The notes under the pieces: generated by a model
The model's input: the letters and a program-made list of their open reading frames with translations, nothing else
What the model was told of the DNA's origin: nothing
The model's database searches: none
Shown here: positions 29-59,456 of the stretch, piece by piece
How the letters are laid out: each line of letters opens with the position of its first letter
Numbering within the stretch: the first letter of the stretch is position 1
DNA from: a virus
Reading direction: 5' to 3' (one strand)
DNA length: 64,000 nt
Virus record (IMG/VR): IMGVR_UViG_3300031920_000359
Made by a program: the position numbers and the translations under genes

Positions 29-3000
29 ATGAGTGATAAAATAAATACTATAATGAATGATTCAAAAATATTAGATTTTCAATTAAAGTTTGTTAATATG
101 CTTGATAAGTATCCTTCTGATATGGATAATCTAAATGAAGCAGGATTTGAAGATCTAAATGATAAAATAGGAAGACATTGTTGTGAATGTATCTATTGTG
201 TTAAAATCGATGATGTAATATGTTTTGCACCATTTGGTTATTTGAGAAATACAATAAATAATAATTTAGATTGTTTTATAGAAAGTTGTTGTTTGAAAGA
301 AAAACAAAAGGAAGATTGGGGCAAGCCCATGTTTCCAGATAGGAAAGCGGCAGACGAATTCGTATTTGGATAGAAAGGTGATGTAAATGGATGCATTGAC
401 TGAAGAAGAGATGAATTGGGCAAAATCTTTTTGTGGAGCTGAGAAAAAGGTGTTTTGGCTTTGTATATATCAAATTGCTTTAAATAAACATAGATTACCT
501 TTTATGATGTTTATGAGTGATTAATAATGAGTGAAAAATCTTCTGTTTGGATAGAAAAATATAGACCGACAGAGCTTGAAGAAGTTCAGGGTAGGGAGGA
601 TATTGTTAAGCGATTAGAAGCATATATTAAAAGCGGAAATATGCCGCATATACTCTTTTCTGGTGGTCCTGGAACGGGTAAAACAACAGGGGCAGTTATA
701 CTTGGTATGAAATTGCTTGGTGATAATTTTGGTGATAATTTTACTGAAAAGAATGCATCTGATGAACGTGGCATAGATGTTATAAGAGGCCCAGTGGCAA
801 ATATTGCTGAAACTTTGGCTTTTGGTGATAATGATTTTAGAATCATTTTCCTTGATGAAGCTGATGCCCTAACTTCTGATGCTCAAAGTGCTCTCAGAAG
901 AACTATGGAAAAAAATACAGACAACTGTAGATTTATTTTGTCGTGTAATTATGTTTCAAAGATAATTCCTCCTATTCAATCAAGATGTGCAATATATAGA
1001 TTTGGTAGATTGAATGATGAAGCTGTTAGTAATATGATTAGATATATTGCTAAACATGAAAATCTAAGGATTGAAGATAATGCTATTGTTGCTCTTCTCT
1101 ATGTCGCTGAAGGAGACATGAGGAAAGCAATCAATACTCTGCAAGATGCTTCGCTTTCTGGTGAAATGATTACAGGAGAAAGCATATATCAGATAAGTGG
1201 ATATGCCCAACCTAAGTTCGTTGAAGATATGATTGAATTAGCATATAAAGGCAAGTTTTTGGAAAGTAAAAATAAACTTGATGTTCTTTTAATTGAGGAA
1301 GGTTTTAGTGGTGGAGACATAGTTTATCAAACATACAAACAGTTACTTAATATGGCTTTACCGGCTAAGCTAATGATAGAAATGGTAGGTATTGTTGGTG
1401 AGATTGACTTCAGAGTTAGTGAAGGAGCCAGCGATAAGATACAACTAGATGCTCTATTAGCTCATTTTGCTAAGATAGGAGATAGGTTTAAATGATTAAT
1501 ATATAGGGGTTGATAAATATGAGATATAGTATATATGGAATAAATTATGAAAAAGCTTGTGAATTGATGGTTGAATTAGACAGTTTTGGAATAGAATCTA
1601 ATATTACACAAGGAGGTATTTCTGTTTATCCATATGGGAATGTTGCGTTGGGTTTATTGGAAAGATTATGTATAAAATATGGAACAAGAGCATCACAAGG
1701 AGCAACACCTTTTGAGGAAGATATTATGTCTAAAAAAGATAGGATAAAAGAATTACCTTGTGAATAATAATGATAAACAGCATTAAATATAAAGGGCATC
1801 CTAAATCTGAAACTATTGAATGTGCTGATGATCGAAAGGACGCTGAATTGATAAAAGAATTATTTTATGAAATGTATGACATAATGGTAGGATTGGGTTA
1901 GGATGACTGATACAAAACTAATAACTAAAAAAGAGTTTGAAGATTTTCTTGAAATGCAAGATAGAATTAGAGAACTTGTTGAACTAAAAACTGCTGAATT
2001 GTCTATGATTTTATATGACAAATTACCAGAAGGTGAAATTTGTGGTGTAGATATAGAAGAATCAGAATTTGAATCTGAATGTATTTTCGTTGAATATGAT
2101 ATATATAGTTGTGGTGAAAGATATGCTGATCAATTTCAATTACCATTCGAGTTCTTGTATGATCTTAAATATCCTACTATATATAAACTTGAGCATGACG
2201 AAAAACTACAAAAAATAAAGAAACAAGAAGAGGAAATGAAACGAGAAGATGAAGAACGTGAGAAACGTGAATTTGAAGAAGCTGAAAGAAAAGAATATGA
2301 AAGATTGAAGTTGAAGTATGAATAAAATTATTAAACAAAAACCAATTTGGTTGTGGCAATGCAATTTGATGCAAATAAATGGTTGTATAATTTATTGCAA
2401 TCAATATGTAGAATCTACATCTTGGCGTAATTGTAAACATAGAAAAGTATTATGTAAAATAATTGAAAAAGAAATAGATATATATGATTAGTATAGGTGA
2501 TTGAAATGAAATTAACCCGTGTTGAATTAGATAATATCAGAAAGGCAAATGGGTTTCATAGTGATAATGAAGCATATAAATGGATTTTAGAAACTTTTCC
2601 TGAATCTGTATTTTATGATAATCTTGAAATAATGGAATTACGTAGTGATGTACAAAGTATGTTAGATTTAAAAATAAAAAGGAATGATTAAAAATATGAA
2701 TGTTAAATTTGAACTAAGTCAAATGTATAAACCGACTGGACTTTGTACAATATGTGGCCAACCATACGATGAAAGTTGGTATCAATCTATACATAAAAAA
2801 GATTGTGTAATGACATATAAGGGGAGTGATCACGGGCATAAACAATGTTTAATAGAATATAGAAAATATTATAATTATTATCATAGAAATGAAGAATAGT
2901 GTTTATAATAAAATTGTATAAAAGATAGAAAGGAGTGAATGATATGGCGACAATATGTAAGAAATGTGGTGGATTAATACCTGATGTTGTATTTGGACAC

Positions 3001-3060
3001 CAAAATAGAAATGATTGTAAAAATCACATTAAAAAAAAGAGCACGTTTAAACGACCGGAT
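29..3060 (+). other. Run of small hypothetical ORFs around rfcS (29-373, 1510-1767, 1903-2325, 2497-2691, 2684-2899 and several <60 aa)
   Basis: ORF track plus GGTGA RBS and overlapping stop/start codons; several are Cys-rich; no family recognised. Confidence 0.7.
527..1495 (+). CDS. rfcS: Replication factor C small subunit (clamp loader)
   Basis: WIEKYRP, Walker A GGPGTGKT, NASDERGIDV, LDEAD, SCNY..KII.PIQSRC, GDMRKAIN; euryarchaeal type. Confidence 0.95.
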   Translation: MSEKSSVWIEKYRPTELEEVQGREDIVKRLEAYIKSGNMPHILFSGGPGTGKTTGAVILGMKLLGDNFGDNFTEKNASDERGIDVIRGPVANIAETLAFGDNDFRIIFLDEADALTSDAQSALRRTMEKNTDNCRFILSCNYVSKIIPPIQSRCAIYRFGRLNDEAVSNMIRYIAKHENLRIEDNAIVALLYVAEGDMRKAINTLQDASLSGEMITGESIYQISGYAQPKFVEDMIELAYKGKFLESKNKLDVLLIEEGFSGGDIVYQTYKQLLNMALPAKLMIEMVGIVGEIDFRVSEGASDKIQLDALLAHFAKIGDRFK

Positions 3061-3089
3061 AGATATTTACTTTGAAGAGGTTTGTGGTT

Positions 3090-3590
3090 ATGATTAAAAA
3101 AATAATTTCTGGTGGACAATCGGGGGCGGACTTATTGGCAATTGGTTGGGCAAAAAGAAATGGTATTAAATGTGAACTTAATGTTGAAAAGAATTATACT
3201 CCATTAAATAATGGAATAATACCTTCTGAGATTCCAATACATGTCGTTTCTGGTAAACGAGGTTATAGTGGAGGATGGATTGAAAGACGGCAATATAATA
3301 TTAAACATAGTGACTTCACTTTGATATTTGTGGGAAAAAATATTTATGAAACAAGAGTCTCATTAGGAACTATGACTGATTGTAAAAAAATGGATAAACC
3401 ATTTTCGTATATTACATTAGATACTGTTGATTCAATAGATGTAGGAATTGTGATTGCTTTCTTTGATGAACATAACATTAAAGTTCTTAATATTGCTGGT
3501 GAAAGGTCGTTGAATAGTATTGAACGAGATAAGATGATTAGGTTTTTAAACATGGTTATTTTAGGTGCTGAAATTAATAATTTTGAGTGA
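3090..3590 (+). CDS. SLOG-superfamily protein (MoCo-carrier/YpsA-like nucleotide-binding)
   Basis: KIISGGQSGAD at the N-terminus, R..YNIKHSDFTLIF, VLNIAGER; ATG at 3090 preferred over TTG at 3072. Confidence 0.65.
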   Translation: MIKKIISGGQSGADLLAIGWAKRNGIKCELNVEKNYTPLNNGIIPSEIPIHVVSGKRGYSGGWIERRQYNIKHSDFTLIFVGKNIYETRVSLGTMTDCKKMDKPFSYITLDTVDSIDVGIVIAFFDEHNIKVLNIAGERSLNSIERDKMIRFLNMVILGAEINNFE

Positions 3591-3635
3591 TGAGTGATAT
3601 ACTTATTTAAATTTTTATAATTATATATAATAATA

Positions 3636-3652
3636 GCGAAGGTTTTATATAG
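3636..3652 (+). promoter_or_regulatory. Putative archaeal BRE/TATA promoter
   Basis: GCGAAGGTTTTATATAG in an intergenic gap; resembles sites at 20617, 26203 and 33079. Confidence 0.5.
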
Positions 3653-3680
3653 CTATAGGTAGTATTAAGGGTAAGAAACT

Positions 3681-3720
3681 AAGCAATACGATATACCAAT
3701 TTCCTTGTATCGTATTGCTT
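3681..3720. repeat. Perfect 13-bp inverted repeat (hairpin)
   Basis: AAGCAATACGATA (3681-3693) and TATCGTATTGCTT (3708-3720), 14-nt loop. Confidence 0.9.
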
Positions 3721-4341
3721 GTGGAGCAGATACCAATTTTGTTGTTTTATATGTTTATCTCCTAAACAATGAGTTCACAATAAAATTAGCTGTAATTCCA
3801 AAAAGATAATGAAAAATAAGTATTGAATTAGATGAAATGTCCGTTGTTTCAAAAAATATATCACCAATATATACACAGGCTTTCCTCCTGTACTGGTCAT
3901 GAGTGTAGTGCCATAAGCCATTCCGGACACATCCAATAATTTAATATTTATAAAAATTAATTTAACAGAAAAGGTGAGTAAATGATTTGTGAAGTATTTA
4001 ATGAAATGATGCGATTTGTAGATTATGTTTTTGGTGGCAATAATTCATATAGGTCAAAAATTGAGTTATGGGAAGTTGTATTGATGACAATACTGTTTTT
4101 AATATCTCTTCTTGTTATATCATGGTGGTTAATACCAATTCAATTGTTATTTAAAAAATATGGAAATATGACATTTTATTGTAATAGTAAAAAAGGTGAG
4201 TAGAAATGGTTAAAATAGGGTACACATCGAAAGGAATTGTTTTAATGGGTGAACAGCAAGTTAAAAAGGAAGATATTCCCAAACTAATTGAACAATTGCA
4301 AGAATCAATAGAAGTTTTAGATACGTTATATGACGATTGAC

Positions 4342-4465
4342 TAACGATTCTAAGCCTATTTAAGTCTACTAATTATAAGGTAAGGGTAGGAATAGGTTTA
4401 TACTAAAAAATAGCCTAAATAGTACCTTATTCTTACGATATAAGGCTTTTAAGGGCTTAATTAGG
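4342..4465 (+). repeat. Dispersed ~110-125 bp intergenic repeat, copy A
   Basis: TTTAAGTCTACTAATTATAAGGTAAGGGTAGGAATAGGTTTATA...TAGCCTAAATAGTACCTTATTCTTACGATATAAGGCTTTTAAG, shared with 15695 and 20926. Confidence 0.92.
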
Positions 4466-6034: not shown

Positions 6035-6451
6035 ATGACTTTAAAACAAGTGTTTATTGTGAATAAAGATTTGAAGATGGGTAAAGGTAAGATAGCCGTT
6101 CAAGTAGCCCATGGTGAAACGTTATATATGAGTGAAATTGGTGCATGCAAATGTGTAGCAATGGTGCATGACTTAGAAGATAAAGAACATCAAATGAAAG
6201 ACAATTTTAAGGAATGGACAAAAGATGGTCTAATGAAGAAAGTTGTTCTAAAAGCAACACAAGATGAAATGTTAATGATAATAGGTGCATTAAAAGCAAT
6301 GAAAAATATAGAAGCTGATGATATATGGTTTGATGTTGTTTTTGATAGGGGTTTGACACAAATACCAGCTGACAGTATGACATGTATCGTTTTTGAACCT
6401 TTAGATGAAGCCGAAGCAGATGCTAGATTTGGATATTTAAAATTGTTGTGA
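6035..6451 (+). CDS. pth2: Peptidyl-tRNA hydrolase, Pth2 type
   Basis: KQVFIVNKDLKMGKGKIAVQVAH, KKVVLK, DRGLTQIP, C-terminal LKLL. Confidence 0.9.
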   Translation: MTLKQVFIVNKDLKMGKGKIAVQVAHGETLYMSEIGACKCVAMVHDLEDKEHQMKDNFKEWTKDGLMKKVVLKATQDEMLMIIGALKAMKNIEADDIWFDVVFDRGLTQIPADSMTCIVFEPLDEAEADARFGYLKLL

Positions 6452-15388: not shown

Positions 15389-15697
15389 ATGGTATATAAA
15401 ACAATAAAAGTGGCTAAAGAAATTATGGAACCACATAGATATTGTGACATCTGCGGTAATGAAATTAATATTAATCTCGCTTGTAATACAGCAAGATGTA
15501 GCTACTGCGGAAGAGATCTATGTGAAGATTGTATCGGTAATGAAGAAGATACTTCTGGTGATTATCGATTTGTTTTTTGTAAAGATTGTTGGAATATAGG
15601 GGAAAGTTATAGACCTGAAATTGATGAACTACACACAAAAATCAATGAATTATACGAAGAATGGCAGGGTAAATGTAAAGAAAACAGCATTGAATAA
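15389..15697 (+). CDS. Zinc-finger protein
   Basis: CDIC, CSYC, CEDC and CKDC pairs. Confidence 0.7.
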   Translation: MVYKTIKVAKEIMEPHRYCDICGNEININLACNTARCSYCGRDLCEDCIGNEEDTSGDYRFVFCKDCWNIGESYRPEIDELHTKINELYEEWQGKCKENSIE

Positions 15698-15813
15698 CGA
15701 TTTAAAACCTATTTAAGCCTACTAATTATAAGGTAGGGCAGGAATAGGTTTATAGTATAAAGTAGGCTTCTATAGGGCTTAACGTTACGATATAAGCCTT
15801 TTAAGGGGTTAAT
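15695..15813 (+). repeat. Dispersed intergenic repeat, copy B (most diverged in its central-3' part)
   Basis: TAACGATT..AA.CCTATTTAAGCCTACTAATTATAAGGTAGGGCAGGAATAGGTTTATAGTA...TTACGATATAAG.CTTTTAAG. Confidence 0.9.
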
Positions 15814-20925: not shown

Positions 20926-21030
20926 TTTAAGCCTACTAATTATAAGGTAAGGGTAAGAATAGGTTTATAGTATAATATAGCCTAAATAGTACCTTATTCT
21001 TACGATATAAGGCTTTTAAGCTCTTAATTA
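20926..21030 (+). repeat. Dispersed intergenic repeat, copy C
   Basis: TTTAAGCCTACTAATTATAAGGTAAGGGTAAGAATAGGTTTATAGTATAATATAGCCTAAATAGTACCTTATTCTTACGATATAAGGCTTTTAAG. Confidence 0.92.
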
Positions 21031-21057: not shown

Positions 21058-21417
21058 ATGACAGAATATAAAACGAATACACACGAAGAATCAATGGCCT
21101 TATCCCTACAGGCATATGAAGCTAGATGTTTAGCTTGGATAGATGAGTTCAACAACGGTCAGATGATTAAAGTAGAATCGAATATGGATTGTCCCATACA
21201 TTTTTGGGTAGTAAGCAATAAGAAGATATGTTATCATGAATTCATACCCAATACAGCATTTTGTAAAATATGTGGTAAACCTTGCTGTCCTGAGTGTTTC
21301 AGTCATGGGGTACATCAAATGAGTAGAGTTACTGGATATGTAGGCAACGTAGATAGTTGGAACGCAGGTAAACAACAGGAATTTAAGGACAGAGATAGAT
21401 TCACCACATTCGGTTAA
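21058..21417 (+). CDS. Stand-alone NrdD C-terminal (Zn ribbon plus glycyl-radical loop) protein
   Basis: C..C...CC..C followed by MSRVTGYVGNVDSWNAGKQQEFKDR, the class III RNR C-terminal signature. Confidence 0.75.
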   Translation: MTEYKTNTHEESMALSLQAYEARCLAWIDEFNNGQMIKVESNMDCPIHFWVVSNKKICYHEFIPNTAFCKICGKPCCPECFSHGVHQMSRVTGYVGNVDSWNAGKQQEFKDRDRFTTFG

Positions 21418-26862: not shown

Positions 26863-28167
26863 TTGATACAAAAAAAATTTTTTGGGAAAAAATTAAAGGG
26901 AAATGACGATAAAGAAAAACAAAGCACAATAGATAAACAAATTTCCGAAAAAAAATTAGGTAATGATTCGACTCCTTCCGATATTGCAAACTTTGTAATT
27001 AAGTCTGTAAAAAAAAATAATGGTAATTTAACTTTAAGCGACAACAGTTTGATTTATTATGATAAATCTCGTATTGAAGATAAAAAAGGTACAAAAATAA
27101 AAATAAATAATATTATTAGAAATATCATAAATGAATTAGATATTATAGCAAAAAAAAGTTTTTTCACCGAAGTTTTTGAAATAATGACAGAAAAAATATA
27201 TGAAAAAATAGAGTCAAAAAAAGTAAAGTCATTTGAAAAAGCAAAAAAATATGTTGATTTAAACAAAGATGAAAATTCAGAATATATATTACCTTCAAAT
27301 GAAGGTATTGTATTTGGTACATTCGATGAAATAATAGGGTATGATAAAGTAAAACAAGAAGTAATGGAAGACTTAATTTTTTGGATAAAATTTCCAGATA
27401 CATACAAAAGAAGAAATGCTAAAAAAAATGTAGGCTCGCTTTTTTATGGTATTAGTGGAACAGGTAAGAGTGCTACAGCATTGGCATTTAAAAAAGAATT
27501 AGAAAAAAAAGGTTTTGATTTTGATTATGTTTACGTACAAACGCAAGAATTAGCCAGTGGACAAATATCTGAGTCAGCAGCTAAAATATCAGATTTTATT
27601 TCACATATACGTAAAAATAAAAAACCCGTGTTACTTTTAATGGATGAAATTGACTATTTATGTAAAAGAAGAAATGATCAAGCGTTCGTAACAGAAAGAA
27701 CAACTGAATTTTTAAAACAATTAGGTAGTAATTATGACAATAATAATTTCTATATAATTGGCACTACAAATAAACCAGAAACAATAGATGAAGCAATGCT
27801 AGAAAATGTAAGATTAACAAGAAAATATTTGTTTAATGTTCCTAATTTAGATGAAAGAGAAGCATTTGTCGAAAAATTTATTACAAATAATGACTTAAAT
27901 ATTGAAATAAAAACAAATGAGGAAGATTTAATTAATATTATTGCTAAAAATACAGAAAATTTTACGGGAGCTAAATTTAATGAACTTCTTGTAAATTGTA
28001 TTCATTTATTAAACAGAAAAGAACTAAATGAAGAAGAAAGTATTATTGAAACGAATGAATTATTTGAAATATTAGCAGACATTAAACCAAAAAGAGAAAT
28101 TACAAAACAAATAAGAGCACTCAAACAATGGAATGCACAAAAAAAGATAGACATTTTTAAAAAATAA
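26863..28167 (+). CDS. AAA+ ATPase (CDC48/Vps4/FtsH clade-like) with unrelated N-terminal domain
   Basis: IIGYDKVKQEV, YGISGTGKS, LLMDEID, IIGTTNKPETIDEAM..RL, FNVPN. Confidence 0.85.
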   Translation: MIQKKFFGKKLKGNDDKEKQSTIDKQISEKKLGNDSTPSDIANFVIKSVKKNNGNLTLSDNSLIYYDKSRIEDKKGTKIKINNIIRNIINELDIIAKKSFFTEVFEIMTEKIYEKIESKKVKSFEKAKKYVDLNKDENSEYILPSNEGIVFGTFDEIIGYDKVKQEVMEDLIFWIKFPDTYKRRNAKKNVGSLFYGISGTGKSATALAFKKELEKKGFDFDYVYVQTQELASGQISESAAKISDFISHIRKNKKPVLLLMDEIDYLCKRRNDQAFVTERTTEFLKQLGSNYDNNNFYIIGTTNKPETIDEAMLENVRLTRKYLFNVPNLDEREAFVEKFITNNDLNIEIKTNEEDLINIIAKNTENFTGAKFNELLVNCIHLLNRKELNEEESIIETNELFEILADIKPKREITKQIRALKQWNAQKKIDIFKK

Positions 28168-28169
28168 GC

Positions 28170-28420
28170 ATTTTAACTTAATTTTTTATTTTTACGTAAA
28201 TAAAAAGTTTAAAAGAGGTCTACTGCTATCGGTTTTTTTAACTCTCTAAAGAGAACTCTAAAACCCTATATAAAAAATATTTTTTTTTCGTATCTATAAT
28301 AGAAAATAAAAAAACGCTTTGGGGTAAATCGACTATCGGTTTAGAGAGTTAAAAAAACCGATAGCAGTAGACCTCTTTTAAACTTTTTATTTACGTAAAA
28401 ATAAAAAATTAAGTTAAAAT
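28170..28420. repeat. Perfect 81-bp inverted repeat with 89-bp spacer
   Basis: 28170-28250 is the exact reverse complement of 28340-28420 (checked base by base). Confidence 0.95.
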
Positions 28421-28546
28421 AAAAATCGCTAGCTAGAGCCTTCATTTTTAAAAAAATAAACTAATTACTAAAAAATCTCTTACTAAAAATCTTTTATAAG
28501 GCCTACTGCTAGCGGTTTCTATACCTGCTAATAGTAGGTATAAACC

Positions 28547-28758
28547 AAAAGTTCTAACTAATAGTTAGAAAAAGCTAGAAAAAATTGAAAAGTTCTAACT
28601 AATAGTTAGAAAAAATTGAAAAGTTCTAACTAATAGCTAGAGAAAACTAGAAAAAATTGAAAAGTTCTAACTAATAGCTAGAGAAAATCAAAAAAGTTCT
28701 AACTAATAGTTAGAAAAAGCTAGAAAAAATTGAAAAGTTCTAACTAATAGCTAGAGAA
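28547..28758. repeat. Six palindromic boxes AAAAGTTCTAACTAATAG(T/C)TAGA (iteron/operator-like)
   Basis: GTTCTAACTAATAG cores start at 28551, 28592, 28623, 28664, 28696 and 28737. Confidence 0.95.
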
Positions 28759-28974
28759 CACTATAAAATTATATTATAAGAGCATCGAAATAGTAAAGAT
28801 TTAACTAGTAATTAATAGGATATAGCCTATTTTTAATAAGTTTTTTAATCAATTAATTAAAATTTTTTATAAGCAATATAATTAGTATAGGTAAGTTTAA
28901 GTACTATTAGATACTATATAGACTAAGATAAAATACTTAATTTACATAAAAGATAATAAGGTTGTGACTAGTAA

Positions 28975-29883
28975 TTGGTTGGCACTAATGTAAAAATAGA
29001 AAAATTCGTTCTTGATTATTTTAAACAAGTTAATTATGGCAGTGACATAAAAAAAAATGAACATATATATGATATTTTAATGGCTTGTTCTTACACCTCT
29101 GATAATAATATATTAGACAAAGAAATGTTAACTTTATATTTTAAAGACAAACAATTAAGCTTAATAAAAGAAAAACAAAAAAAGTTAGGTTATGAAGGTA
29201 ATTTCAATAGATTTGTTAGATATGCCTTATTTGATTTTTTTATGGTAAAACATAATATGACTTTATCCAATAAATTCTTTGATAAACTTATAGATTATGA
29301 TAAATTTAATCTACTATTGGAAAAATGTAAAAATGAATTAATTAATGGGGAATATACTTCTTATGATATTGATTTATTAAGAAATAATAAAAAATATGAA
29401 GAATTTTTTAATGAGGATGAACTTAATGATGTTAAAGAAGAAATAGATTTTAATCTTGATTATTTAGAACATGATATGTTAACATTTTTAGCTTGTGAAT
29501 TTATACAAGAAAATAAATATTCTGAATTAATTGGATTAGCTACGGACGGAGAAGATCTTGAAAATATAGTTCCAGATGTTAATACTTTTTATTATTTATT
29601 TTTATACTATGCATTCATGCTTGATCATGAAGATTTAGATATTGATGAAATATTTGATGAAACTGATGAACATATTGATAGTTTGCTAGAAAAATATACA
29701 TTTGAAAAGATTATTAAACACAACAAAAATAAAGGCGTTGTTGATATTAATGAAATATTTGATGAAGAATGTCTTTTGTATTTAAAATCGAATGAACTTA
29801 TAGATTTTGATGAATATTTAAAATTAGATGAAGAACCTGATATTGGTGAAGCATCTAACGATGAAAGTGATGATTTAAAATAA
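28975..29883 (+). CDS. Acidic hypothetical protein next to the repeat region
   Basis: ORF track, TTG start; no motif recognised. Confidence 0.7.
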   Translation: MVGTNVKIEKFVLDYFKQVNYGSDIKKNEHIYDILMACSYTSDNNILDKEMLTLYFKDKQLSLIKEKQKKLGYEGNFNRFVRYALFDFFMVKHNMTLSNKFFDKLIDYDKFNLLLEKCKNELINGEYTSYDIDLLRNNKKYEEFFNEDELNDVKEEIDFNLDYLEHDMLTFLACEFIQENKYSELIGLATDGEDLENIVPDVNTFYYLFLYYAFMLDHEDLDIDEIFDETDEHIDSLLEKYTFEKIIKHNKNKGVVDINEIFDEECLLYLKSNELIDFDEYLKLDEEPDIGEASNDESDDLK

Positions 29884-45245: not shown

Positions 45246-46778
45246 ATGTCAAATATGAGAGTAACCCATATGTTATATACTGATGCAGCTGCTCCTCCTC
45301 CTGTAACTGCTTTTATTTCTGTTTGGGATACGTCAACCACATATACCGGTTCAAGTGCTGCAGACCAAGTTAAGTTACCTCTTGAACTTAGTGGAAATTA
45401 TAATTTTACAGTAGATTGGGGTGATACAAATTCTGATACTATTACAATTTGGAATGAAGCTGCAACAACTCATACTTATGCAGTTCCTGGTATATATACA
45501 ATATCAATTGAAGGAACTATTACTGGATGGAGATTCAATAACGGAGGAGACGATAGGAAAATTACTGATGTAACAAATTGTGGATGTTTAAATGTTGGTA
45601 ATAATGATAGTTACTTCCAGGGTTGTTCAAACCTTGTTTGGACAGCAACTGATGCATTAGATACAACTGGTACAACTAATATGTACCAAATGTTTTATAG
45701 TGCTCGTGTTTTTAATGGTGATATAGATAATTGGGATGTATCAAGTGTAACCGATATGGATAGTATGTTTTATTATGCTTTTGATTTTAATCAAGATATT
45801 GGTGGTTGGGATGTATCAAGTGTAACAAATATGGATAATATGTTTTATTTTGCTGAAATGTTTAATCAAGATTTAGATTCTTGGGATGTATCAAATGTTT
45901 TAACAATGAAATTTATGTTTAGTTATGCACTTACCTTTAATGGTAATATAAGTTCTTGGGCTGTATCAAGTGTTACATTAATGCCTGCAATGTTTAATGA
46001 TGCTTTTGATTTTAATCAAGATATTGGTGGTTGGGATGTATCAAGTGTAACAAATATGGATAATATGTTTGCTGGTGATATTGCATTCAATCAAGATATA
46101 AGTTCTTGGGTTGTATCCAGTGTAATAAGTATGGATGGTATGTTTGCTAGCACTATTGCATTCAATCAAGATATAAGTTCTTGGGATGTATCAAGTGTTG
46201 CATCAATGCATGGTATGTTTGATAGTGCAACAGCATTTAATCAAAATATCGGCGGTTGGAATGTTGGATTAGTTACAAATATGGATTATATGTTTTTGGG
46301 AGCAACATTATTTAATCAGAATATTGGTGGTTGGAACATATCAAATGTTACAACAATGAATAGAATGTTCCGTGATGCTATTGCATTTAATCAAGATATT
46401 GGAAGTTGGAATGTTGGATTAGTAACAGATATGGATTATATGTTTTATGGTGCAACATTATTTAATCAGAATATTGGTGGTTGGAATGTTGGATTAGTTA
46501 CAGATATGGAACATATGTTTGAAAATGCTATTGCTTTTGACCAAGATATAGGTGGTTGGGATATAACATCATTATTATATGCTTTAAATATGTTTACAGG
46601 TATTGCACTTTCAACAGCAGACTATGATGCTCTTTTAATTGGTTGGGAAGCACAAGTAGAACAACCAAATGTTACATTTAGTGGTGGTAATAGTACATAT
46701 AATGCTGGAGCTCCTGCTACAGCAAGAGCAGCTTTGGTGGCTAATGGTTGGGTTATAACTGATGGTGGGCAAGTATAA
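45246..46778 (+). CDS. BspA/DUF285-type repeat surface protein with PKD-like N-terminus
   Basis: Twelve 25-aa F(N/D)QDIGGWDVSSVTNM..MF-type units; VDWGD...HTY. Confidence 0.9.
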   Translation: MSNMRVTHMLYTDAAAPPPVTAFISVWDTSTTYTGSSAADQVKLPLELSGNYNFTVDWGDTNSDTITIWNEAATTHTYAVPGIYTISIEGTITGWRFNNGGDDRKITDVTNCGCLNVGNNDSYFQGCSNLVWTATDALDTTGTTNMYQMFYSARVFNGDIDNWDVSSVTDMDSMFYYAFDFNQDIGGWDVSSVTNMDNMFYFAEMFNQDLDSWDVSNVLTMKFMFSYALTFNGNISSWAVSSVTLMPAMFNDAFDFNQDIGGWDVSSVTNMDNMFAGDIAFNQDISSWVVSSVISMDGMFASTIAFNQDISSWDVSSVASMHGMFDSATAFNQNIGGWNVGLVTNMDYMFLGATLFNQNIGGWNISNVTTMNRMFRDAIAFNQDIGSWNVGLVTDMDYMFYGATLFNQNIGGWNVGLVTDMEHMFENAIAFDQDIGGWDITSLLYALNMFTGIALSTADYDALLIGWEAQVEQPNVTFSGGNSTYNAGAPATARAALVANGWVITDGGQV

Positions 46779-58790: not shown

Positions 58791-59456
58791 ATGAAACAAA
58801 TTTGTGCATCAGATTTACATTTAGGTTATGAAAGAGCCAACTATGATAAAATATGCAAACTATTCGATATAGCTAAAGATAAATCTGATGAACTTATTTT
58901 ATGTGGTGATACCTTTGACCTTTGGCGATACCCTGTATCAAAAATAGACAAAACAACAATGATAGGATTCAAAGATTGTTTAAATAAACTAAAAGAAACA
59001 GCTAATGAAATACCTGTAAAAATAATAACAGGAAATCACGATTATAATTTACAAAAAGTTTGGAAGAATCTAAGAAAAGACTACAACGTTGAAATAACAG
59101 ATAGTTTTTATCAAGGAAATATTTATTATACACACGGCTGGCAATTCGATATAAAGCAAAGATTAGGTAGTTTTGCTTATTCATGGATAATAGATAAATT
59201 TCCTTATTTTTATCAAAAATTATTTAAAACGCCTGTTCAAATGGGTTTAATAAAAGATGATAAATTTAATTTTTTTATTGAAAAAGTACATCATGAAGCA
59301 GAAAAATTTGCTATTAATAATACTTTAAAATATGTAGTTATGGGACATACCCATATACCAACAATATTCAATAAAGTAATTAATTGTGGTGATTTTATAG
59401 ATTCATGTAGTTATGTAGTTATCAAAGACAAAAAAATCGAAATGAGGTATATTTAA
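58791..59456 (+). CDS. Calcineurin-like metallophosphoesterase
   Basis: SDLHLG, GDTFD, GNHD, THG, GHTH. Confidence 0.9.
   Translation: MKQICASDLHLGYERANYDKICKLFDIAKDKSDELILCGDTFDLWRYPVSKIDKTTMIGFKDCLNKLKETANEIPVKIITGNHDYNLQKVWKNLRKDYNVEITDSFYQGNIYYTHGWQFDIKQRLGSFAYSWIIDKFPYFYQKLFKTPVQMGLIKDDKFNFFIEKVHHEAEKFAINNTLKYVVMGHTHIPTIFNKVINCGDFIDSCSYVVIKDKKIEMRYI

Follow-up and report, generated by a model that had tools for sequence, protein, structure and literature searches.

The 64-kb stretch of viral DNA analysed here (the window; 64,000 nt of a 77-kb source contig) has all of its genes on the plus strand, and the first-pass annotation was right in stating that the genes on both sides of the inverted repeat described below share one strand. 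The left block, referred to as the replication side, has archaeal-type replication genes for the small and large RFC subunits, both above the NCBIfam equivalog cut-offs, and for a divergent sliding clamp (PCNA), and it also encodes an SF2 helicase and a PTH2 peptidyl-tRNA hydrolase. We infer an archaeal host for this archaeal-type, uncultivated virus from marine sediment. The last gene of the block encodes an AAA ATPase (Table 1), which matched Pfam AAA (E 3.5e-22) and the NCBIfam CDC48 and CdvC models (E ~1e-21), and for which VCP/CDC48 D2 gave the best PDB matches (E ~1e-31). An assignment of this ORF as Orc1/Cdc6 was rejected, its score against the orc1/cdc6 model being 25 bits versus a cut-off of 181. 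Within the 64-kb window, to which all gene-content negatives refer (~13 kb of the source contig lies outside it), profile searches recognised no Rep or Orc1/Cdc6 gene near the repeat, and the scanned ORFs yielded no telomere resolvase, protelomerase or protein-primed polymerase (Pfam, PHROG and NCBIfam), no capsid, portal or terminase match and, among those of at least 120 aa, no site-specific recombinase.

Gene content noted at 6035-6451, 3072-3590, 21058-21417, 45246-46778 and 58791-59456 comprises the PTH2-type hydrolase, a protein with a cpYpsA SLOG domain, the C-terminal part of an anaerobic ribonucleotide reductase as a stand-alone fragment, a protein of DUF285 repeats (E 4e-165) and a phosphoesterase of the calcineurin-like kind. 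Phage records contained neither near-identical DNA for the window nor a match for its predicted ribbon-helix-helix (RHH) protein. IMG/VR gave no match to the AAA, RFC large-subunit or RHH proteins or alignments, the contigs of GTDB representative genomes gave none to the RHH alignment, and a scan of JGI metagenomes returned nothing but a contig that was already known. The virus lineage and the box motif described below are new; the element itself is of a familiar type, that of inverted boxes serving as operator or origin in the control region of a virus.

The AAA gene is followed by a gap of 807 nt (28168-28974) between the replication genes and the block of genes that comes after them. It is the largest non-coding stretch of the window, the next largest being 391 nt, and contains 77% A+T. 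The inverted repeat, four copies of a box motif, a tandem iteron array and the window's least stable duplex all lie in this gap (Table 1).

Table 1 Features of the control region and its flanking genes (positions in the window)
Feature	Position	Strand	Description and basis
AAA ATPase gene	26863-28167	+	Classical clade, CDC48/CdvC-like; last gene of the replication-side block
Arm 1	28170-28250	+	47 nt of A/T-rich flank with T-runs, box and 11 nt
Box 1	28217-28239	+	GGTCTACTGCTATCGGTTTTTTT; exact pattern; PWM 31.6 bits
Spacer	28251-28339		73% A+T
BRE/TATA-like motif in spacer	about 28251-28279		From comparison with L003-L005
C-run/G-run short remnant in spacer	28264-28266 / 28321-28324		From comparison with L003-L005
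T9 run in spacer	28280-28288
Partial box at spacer/arm 2 edge	28330-28345	+
Arm 2	28340-28420	-	Perfect inverted partner of arm 1
Box 2	28351-28373	-	Same sequence as box 1; PWM scan
Box 3	28419-28441	-	Diverged and weaker, AGGCTCTAGCTAGCGATTTTTAT on the minus strand; PWM 22.6 bits; absent from the first-pass annotation
Box 4	28500-28522	+	GGCCTACTGCTAGCGGTTTCTAT; pattern and PWM
Near-palindrome	28524-28538		CCTGCTAATAGTAGG; a similar one in L005 at 2757-2771
Tandem array	28547-28773		Six 19-bp palindromic iterons (TTCTAACTAATAGTTAGAA and variant) with A-tracts between; repeat search
Least stable duplex at 150-800-bp scale	28780-28970		Candidate unwinding element, also leader of the downstream gene
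First downstream gene	28975-29883	+	302-aa protein; N-terminal 95 residues model as single-chain tandem RHH

The inverted repeat in the sampled DNA

A repeat search over the 64-kb window recovered the perfect inverted repeat that had been reported from the sequence, with two arms of 81 nt each, 100% complementary and 89 nt apart. Arm 1 starts 3 nt past the stop codon (28165-28167) of the AAA gene, and a further, 43-nt copy of the inner arm (74%) corresponds to box 4 and its flank. As a single strand, a 271-nt stretch folds with -88.6 kcal/mol, compared with -23.9 +/- 3.5 kcal/mol for shuffles (z = -18.7). A MITE or transposon was rejected as its identity, there being no further copy of arm or box in 64 kb and no direct duplication in the flanks (...ATAAGC / AAAAAT...). 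The spacer had been described as A/T-rich. At 73% A+T, however, it is no richer than its surroundings, and it is not the least stable DNA locally: its instability falls in the 95th-99th percentile, according to the window size used, and the minima lie at 28660-28960 and elsewhere. Over the 64-kb window these minima start at 28809 (150 bp), 28660 (300 bp) and 28721 (800 bp). The sequence AAAAAATATTTTTT at 28272-28285 lies off the dyad centre (~28295).

Evidence on depth came from Logan contigs (k=31) built from the source run. The sequence occurs in one marine-sediment sample, which is filed twice (X1 = X2); both entries are the same sample, probably the source of the assembly, and thus do not provide independent support. 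In the k=31 graph, the left-flank contig ends at 28199 with a depth of 18.3, the arm is a single 81-nt unitig at a depth of 30.9 (~2x the flank depth), a 149-nt unitig (28221-28369) comprising the spacer and 30 nt of each arm has a depth of 15, and the right-flank contig runs from 28391 onward at a depth of 13. The doubled depth of the arm unitig together with four full-depth junctions indicates that the arm occurs twice in copies identical at the k-mer level, and the full depth of all junctions argues against a chimera. Although the sequence comes from one sample only and was assessed from contigs, an assembly or amplification artefact in the form of an inverted chimera is highly improbable, given the full depth of the spacer as well as the junctions, an arm depth close to the sum of the two flanks and a layout found in the same order in relatives that come from different samples. 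The inverted repeat is genuine DNA. The graph alone is also compatible with two hairpin termini and, because the 81-nt arm is longer than k, the spacer unitig is compatible with either orientation of the spacer. In run X1, a contig of low depth (~4-5x versus ~15x) matches 28278-28313 of the spacer and diverges past 28313, and may represent either a minor structural variant or a chance match to unrelated A/T-rich DNA.

Boxes, iterons and the adjacent RHH-like protein

Each arm carries one 23-bp box, GGTCTACTGCTATCGGTTTTTTT. A pattern search with its 16-nt form CTACTGCTATCGGTTT confirmed the earlier statement that the box occurs in both arms and once more downstream, with matches at 28220 (+) and 28355 (-) and a third with one mismatch at 28503 (+); these three matches compare with 0.48 expected in 64 kb, and none was found outside the gap. 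With a PWM for the 23-bp box, four sites were detected (boxes 1-4), all inside the gap and none elsewhere in the 64 kb. In the relatives, 2-5 boxes in both orientations occupy the same gap and only 2 weak matches occur in ~100 kb of their other DNA, a result that is informative solely through the absence of matches elsewhere since the PWM was trained on these very regions. Box-to-box spacing is 68-134 bp, wider than in classical RHH operators. The hexamer CCTACT was considered as a half-site common to boxes, iterons and the cassettes described below, and was ruled out as too frequent to be meaningful.

Downstream of the boxes, the six iterons are phased with a 41/31-nt spacing and adjoin the easily melted stretch, and an iteron-type origin is expected to have at least four phased iterons in such a setting. 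The iteron region next to the inverted repeat is therefore a probable origin of iteron type. It resembles lambda ori and the oriV of pSC101, P1 and F in having phased palindromic iterons of ~19 bp (four to six), A-tracts, an adjoining A/T-rich stretch that melts easily and a separate inverted repeat near the gene of a DNA-binding protein. It departs from those systems in that no initiator of the Rep, O, DnaA or Orc1 kind can be recognised, the box of its inverted repeat is not clearly a half-iteron, and its host is archaeal by inference. GC and AT skew, followed across the window, showed no inflection at the repeat, and this flat skew is little informative because all genes are on one strand.

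The first downstream gene encodes a 302-aa protein, gp28975, in which Pfam RHH had no significant match and left faint hints. An AF2 model built on a 27-sequence alignment had a mean pLDDT of 59, and its residues 1-95 (pLDDT 74-86) form beta-alpha-alpha twice. In an unbiased VIA-align search, the structure neighbours of this N-domain were single-chain or tandem RHH DNA binders. The F-plasmid relaxosome chain 9f0x_E ranked first (Z 9.2 over 91 aligned residues), followed by Arc in single-chain form (Z 6.8), DndE, AvtR (Z 6.3) and VirC2, so that the domain can be described as TraY/AvtR-like. Residues ~150-228, in the low-confidence part of the model, gave weak winged-helix-like matches. All 27 homologues conserve the two strands that are predicted to read DNA, NVKIEKF and TLYFTDEQL. 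As these strands are as conserved as the box while the iterons vary, the box would be likelier than the iterons to be the RHH target. On the same grounds, gp28975 would be the best candidate reader of the boxes.

AvtR, the tandem-RHH regulator of an archaeal lipothrixvirus, represses its own gene, binds imperfect inverted repeats and protects ~100 nt between promoters (PMC5569661). The arrangement in the window is similar to the operators of AvtR (AFV6), SvtR (SIRV1) and CopG/ORF56: a predicted RHH gene directly follows the non-coding region, several imperfect or inverted copies of the presumed site surround a BRE/TATA-like promoter motif, and the RHH domain is modelled as a single-chain tandem, as in AvtR. 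In contrast to those systems, gp28975 has a further, structurally unassigned part of ~200 residues, the boxes are not adjacent to each other, and iterons lie alongside as a second class of repeats.

The control region in relatives

A protein search of sediment and cold-seep assemblies found five homologue clusters of the AAA ATPase (50-77% identity) and 26 of gp28975 (49-60% identity), whose gene keeps a constant position, always first after the control region and followed by a gene for a ~230-aa coiled-coil protein. L003-L005 share the AAA gene with the window. In L008, L011/L012 and L017 (D5-type relatives), a D5_N/DUF5906 primase-helicase gene (L008 7500-9155, L011 7563-9227, L017 7285-8823) stands in place of the AAA gene, with no detectable similarity between the AAA ATPase and the D5-like primase-helicase. 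The order of box, TATA-like motif and iterons is common to L003, L004, L005, L008, L011 and L017. At six loci, a purine-rich AAC and TATA-like motif lies ~10-25 nt 3' of the T-run of a (+) box, with the caveat that TATA-like strings are frequent in A/T-rich DNA. Iterons follow in every relative, and their sequence differs from virus to virus.

The perfection of the arms is not shared. In a frame of 81 nt (47 nt of flank, the box and 11 nt), the window pair is 100% identical, versus 30-59% in 34 other pairs, which comprise the other box pairs of the window genome and those of six relative loci and in which the similarity is located in the box. A comparison with L001, the closest relative (77% identity in the AAA protein), made to tell which of the two arms is ancestral, gave similarity not above that of shuffles. 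Outer complementarity around the boxes is weak in L003-L005, which have a different, inner palindrome. It is imperfect and 100-150 nt long, with arms of 37-53 nt that are 73-79% complementary and near-perfect C-run/G-run cores of 15-24 bp; two positions are compensatory between L003 and L004/L005. Of this inner palindrome the window keeps the CCC/GGGG remnant alone, and in the D5-type relatives no long inverted repeat was found beyond the boxes. The compensatory changes hint at selection for hairpin potential, which would be unexplained by an operator model. What all these viruses have in common is thus the set of boxes with its promoter-like motif and iterons, and not the 81-bp perfection.

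Two side observations concern the gene content of the relatives and a second palindromic element. L001 has a nicotinate/nicotinamide phosphoribosyltransferase gene (NAMPT_N, NAPRTase; 2845-4161) in its replication-side block. A family of quasi-palindromic cassettes of ~110 bp with the core GGTAAGGGTAGGAATAGG ... CCTTATTCTTAC occurs in the window at 4342-4465, 15695-15813 and 20926-21030, and counterparts in the D5-type relatives (e.g. GTAGGGATAGAATAGG...AAAACGTAGGTCACAA; L008 9190-9300, L011 9270-9385, L017 9340-9450) lie right after the primase-helicase gene, upstream of the boxes. Its presence in both the window and the D5-type relatives makes the cassette a second conserved palindromic element of the virus group.

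The long hairpin could act in RNA, where read-through from the AAA gene would place it at the end of the early transcript and terminate or stabilise that transcript, or give rise to a small RNA. The position of arm 1 right after the stop codon, its T-runs and the location of the inner palindrome of L003-L005 just 3' of the TATA-like motif fit such a transcript-level element. However, Rfam gave nothing above threshold, only miRNA-hairpin noise, a transcript from the promoter-like motif between the arms would include one arm only, and the hairpin is not conserved in the D5-type relatives, which together leave this explanation with a low probability.

Perfect arms around a BRE/TATA-like motif that aligns with those of relatives might also form an invertible promoter, in which recombination between the arms would flip the 89-bp spacer and switch transcription from rightward to antisense. 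The k=31 graph would accommodate both orientations. In the relatives, however, the arms are imperfect and the orientation is single and fixed, the C-run always standing to the left of the G-run, as assembled in the window; 89 bp is very short for synapsis, and no recombinase was found in the scanned ORFs of at least 120 aa. We consider an invertible promoter improbable.

The first-pass annotation had also proposed that the repeat represents the joined ends of a linear genome with terminal inverted repeats. Such ends might be hairpins or a cos-like site, and their junction might be due to circularisation in the assembly or to the sequencing of a replicative form. Two flanks entering one 2x arm and a 1x loop would fit two hairpin termini equally well, and eleven relative contigs end or start within ~500 nt of the region. 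Six contigs stop 86-513 nt past the AAA gene, and six start 62-248 nt ahead of the downstream gene. The arrangement of inverted sites ahead of a first late gene whose product binds DNA resembles lambda cosB and Nu1, which also counts for this proposal. Hairpin telomeres or concatemer junctions of poxviruses, ASFV, chloroviruses and rudiviruses similarly have perfect arms around a partly self-pairing, A/T-rich centre of ~90 nt, and their k-mer graph would look identical to that obtained here. The contig breaks (L001-L006, L010, L013-L016 and L018), however, fall in tandem iterons and repeated boxes, which break assemblies anyway, and are therefore assembly breaks and not termini. Moreover, unlike at those telomeres, relatives with imperfect arms read through the region, and imperfect arms cannot arise by hairpin read-through. 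In L003-L005 the assembly continues from the AAA gene across the palindrome and reaches the iterons, L011/L012 (L012 being a single Logan contig) and L017 cross the homologous region free of gaps, and on the 108-kb scaffold of L008, where an N gap interrupts the iterons, the region is found at 44-65 kb. The full depth of the spacer, a layout colinear across lineages and the lack of a terminase, protelomerase, resolvase or protein-primed polymerase in the scanned ORFs also speak against joined ends. The proposal is not supported, and we give it little credence.

Function of the boxes and history of the perfect arms

Another proposal from the first pass was a cruciform origin, in which the inverted boxes would bind an initiator, the spacer would melt and the arms would form hairpins or a cruciform in the manner of HSV oriL. 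That origin is a perfect palindrome of 144 bp with inverted UL9 boxes around an A/T centre; the likeness is a resemblance and implies no homology. As in oriL, a long perfect palindrome with inverted initiator-type boxes in its arms lies between gene blocks. Phased palindromic iterons, six in number, and the window's least stable DNA lie next to it, the region follows replication genes (in relatives, the D5-like primase-helicase gene), and the AAA-type relatives keep their imperfect palindrome there, with compensatory changes in its C-run/G-run stem. Archaeal chromosomal origins (ORB/DUE) are likewise intergenic, with inverted repeated boxes adjoining an AAA-family gene, and G-runs stand beside a weak box in the relatives. 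Unlike in oriL, the centre is 89 bp long, asymmetric and not specially A/T-rich, the flanking genes are co-directional and no UL9-like protein is present; in contrast to archaeal chromosomal origins, the neighbouring ATPase is CDC48/CdvC-like and not Orc1/Cdc6, the box has no evident ORB dyad and the G-run polarity relative to the box differs.

What stands of the proposal is that an origin role of the wider region is plausible, given the phased iterons and the least stable DNA downstream. The cruciform part fares less well: the spacer is no stability minimum and does not stand out as an unwinding element, a spacer of 89 bp disfavours cruciform extrusion, the D5-type relatives have no long inverted repeat and no long hairpin potential, the skew has no break at 28.3 kb and no Orc1/Cdc6 or Rep gene was recognised nearby. 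A palindromic origin of this kind is thus unlikely, though a tenable minority reading. Equally tentative is its widest form, that palindrome, boxes and iterons constitute the origin of a previously undescribed lineage of large archaeal viruses, with a virus-encoded tandem-RHH protein as origin-binding factor and arms that would form hairpins once unwound, so that an archaeal virus would have a palindromic origin like oriL.

On balance, and with a probability that we place a little above even, the boxes serve as operator or auxiliary sites around a promoter-like motif, beside a probable iteron-type origin, and the arms have recently been made perfect. The boxes would be putative sites for a sequence-specific protein, for which the RHH protein is the best candidate, and the two in the arms would stand on either side of the spacer's rightward promoter-like motif. 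In that role they may regulate the downstream module, the neighbouring iteron-type origin or both. Within this reading, a mainly transcriptional operator takes somewhat less than half of the weight, an integral origin element a clearly smaller share, and other roles the remainder.

The perfect arms would have resulted from one recent intramolecular copying between two boxes that were already inverted, by template switching or gene conversion, that is, quasi-palindrome correction, which is an established mechanism. The low identity of equivalent frames and the relatives that read through the region point to recent copying and not to terminal repeats joined by assembly. The first-pass annotation had taken the perfect identity to imply homogenisation or a recent origin, which is borne out by the contrast between the window pair and all 34 others; on this comparison, the 81-bp identity is most likely a recent, lineage-specific event and not a conserved functional property.

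By itself, the perfect repeat means little beyond a clean natural case of a quasi-palindrome made perfect. The box and iteron region accounts for the assembly breaks of these viruses, and such systematic contig breaks could be misread as genome termini. Of wider use is the defined grammar of the non-coding region, in which a conserved box is combined with a promoter-like motif, with iterons and with the predicted RHH gene alongside, and which yields DNA and protein reagents for testing how gene blocks are switched or replication starts in such viruses.
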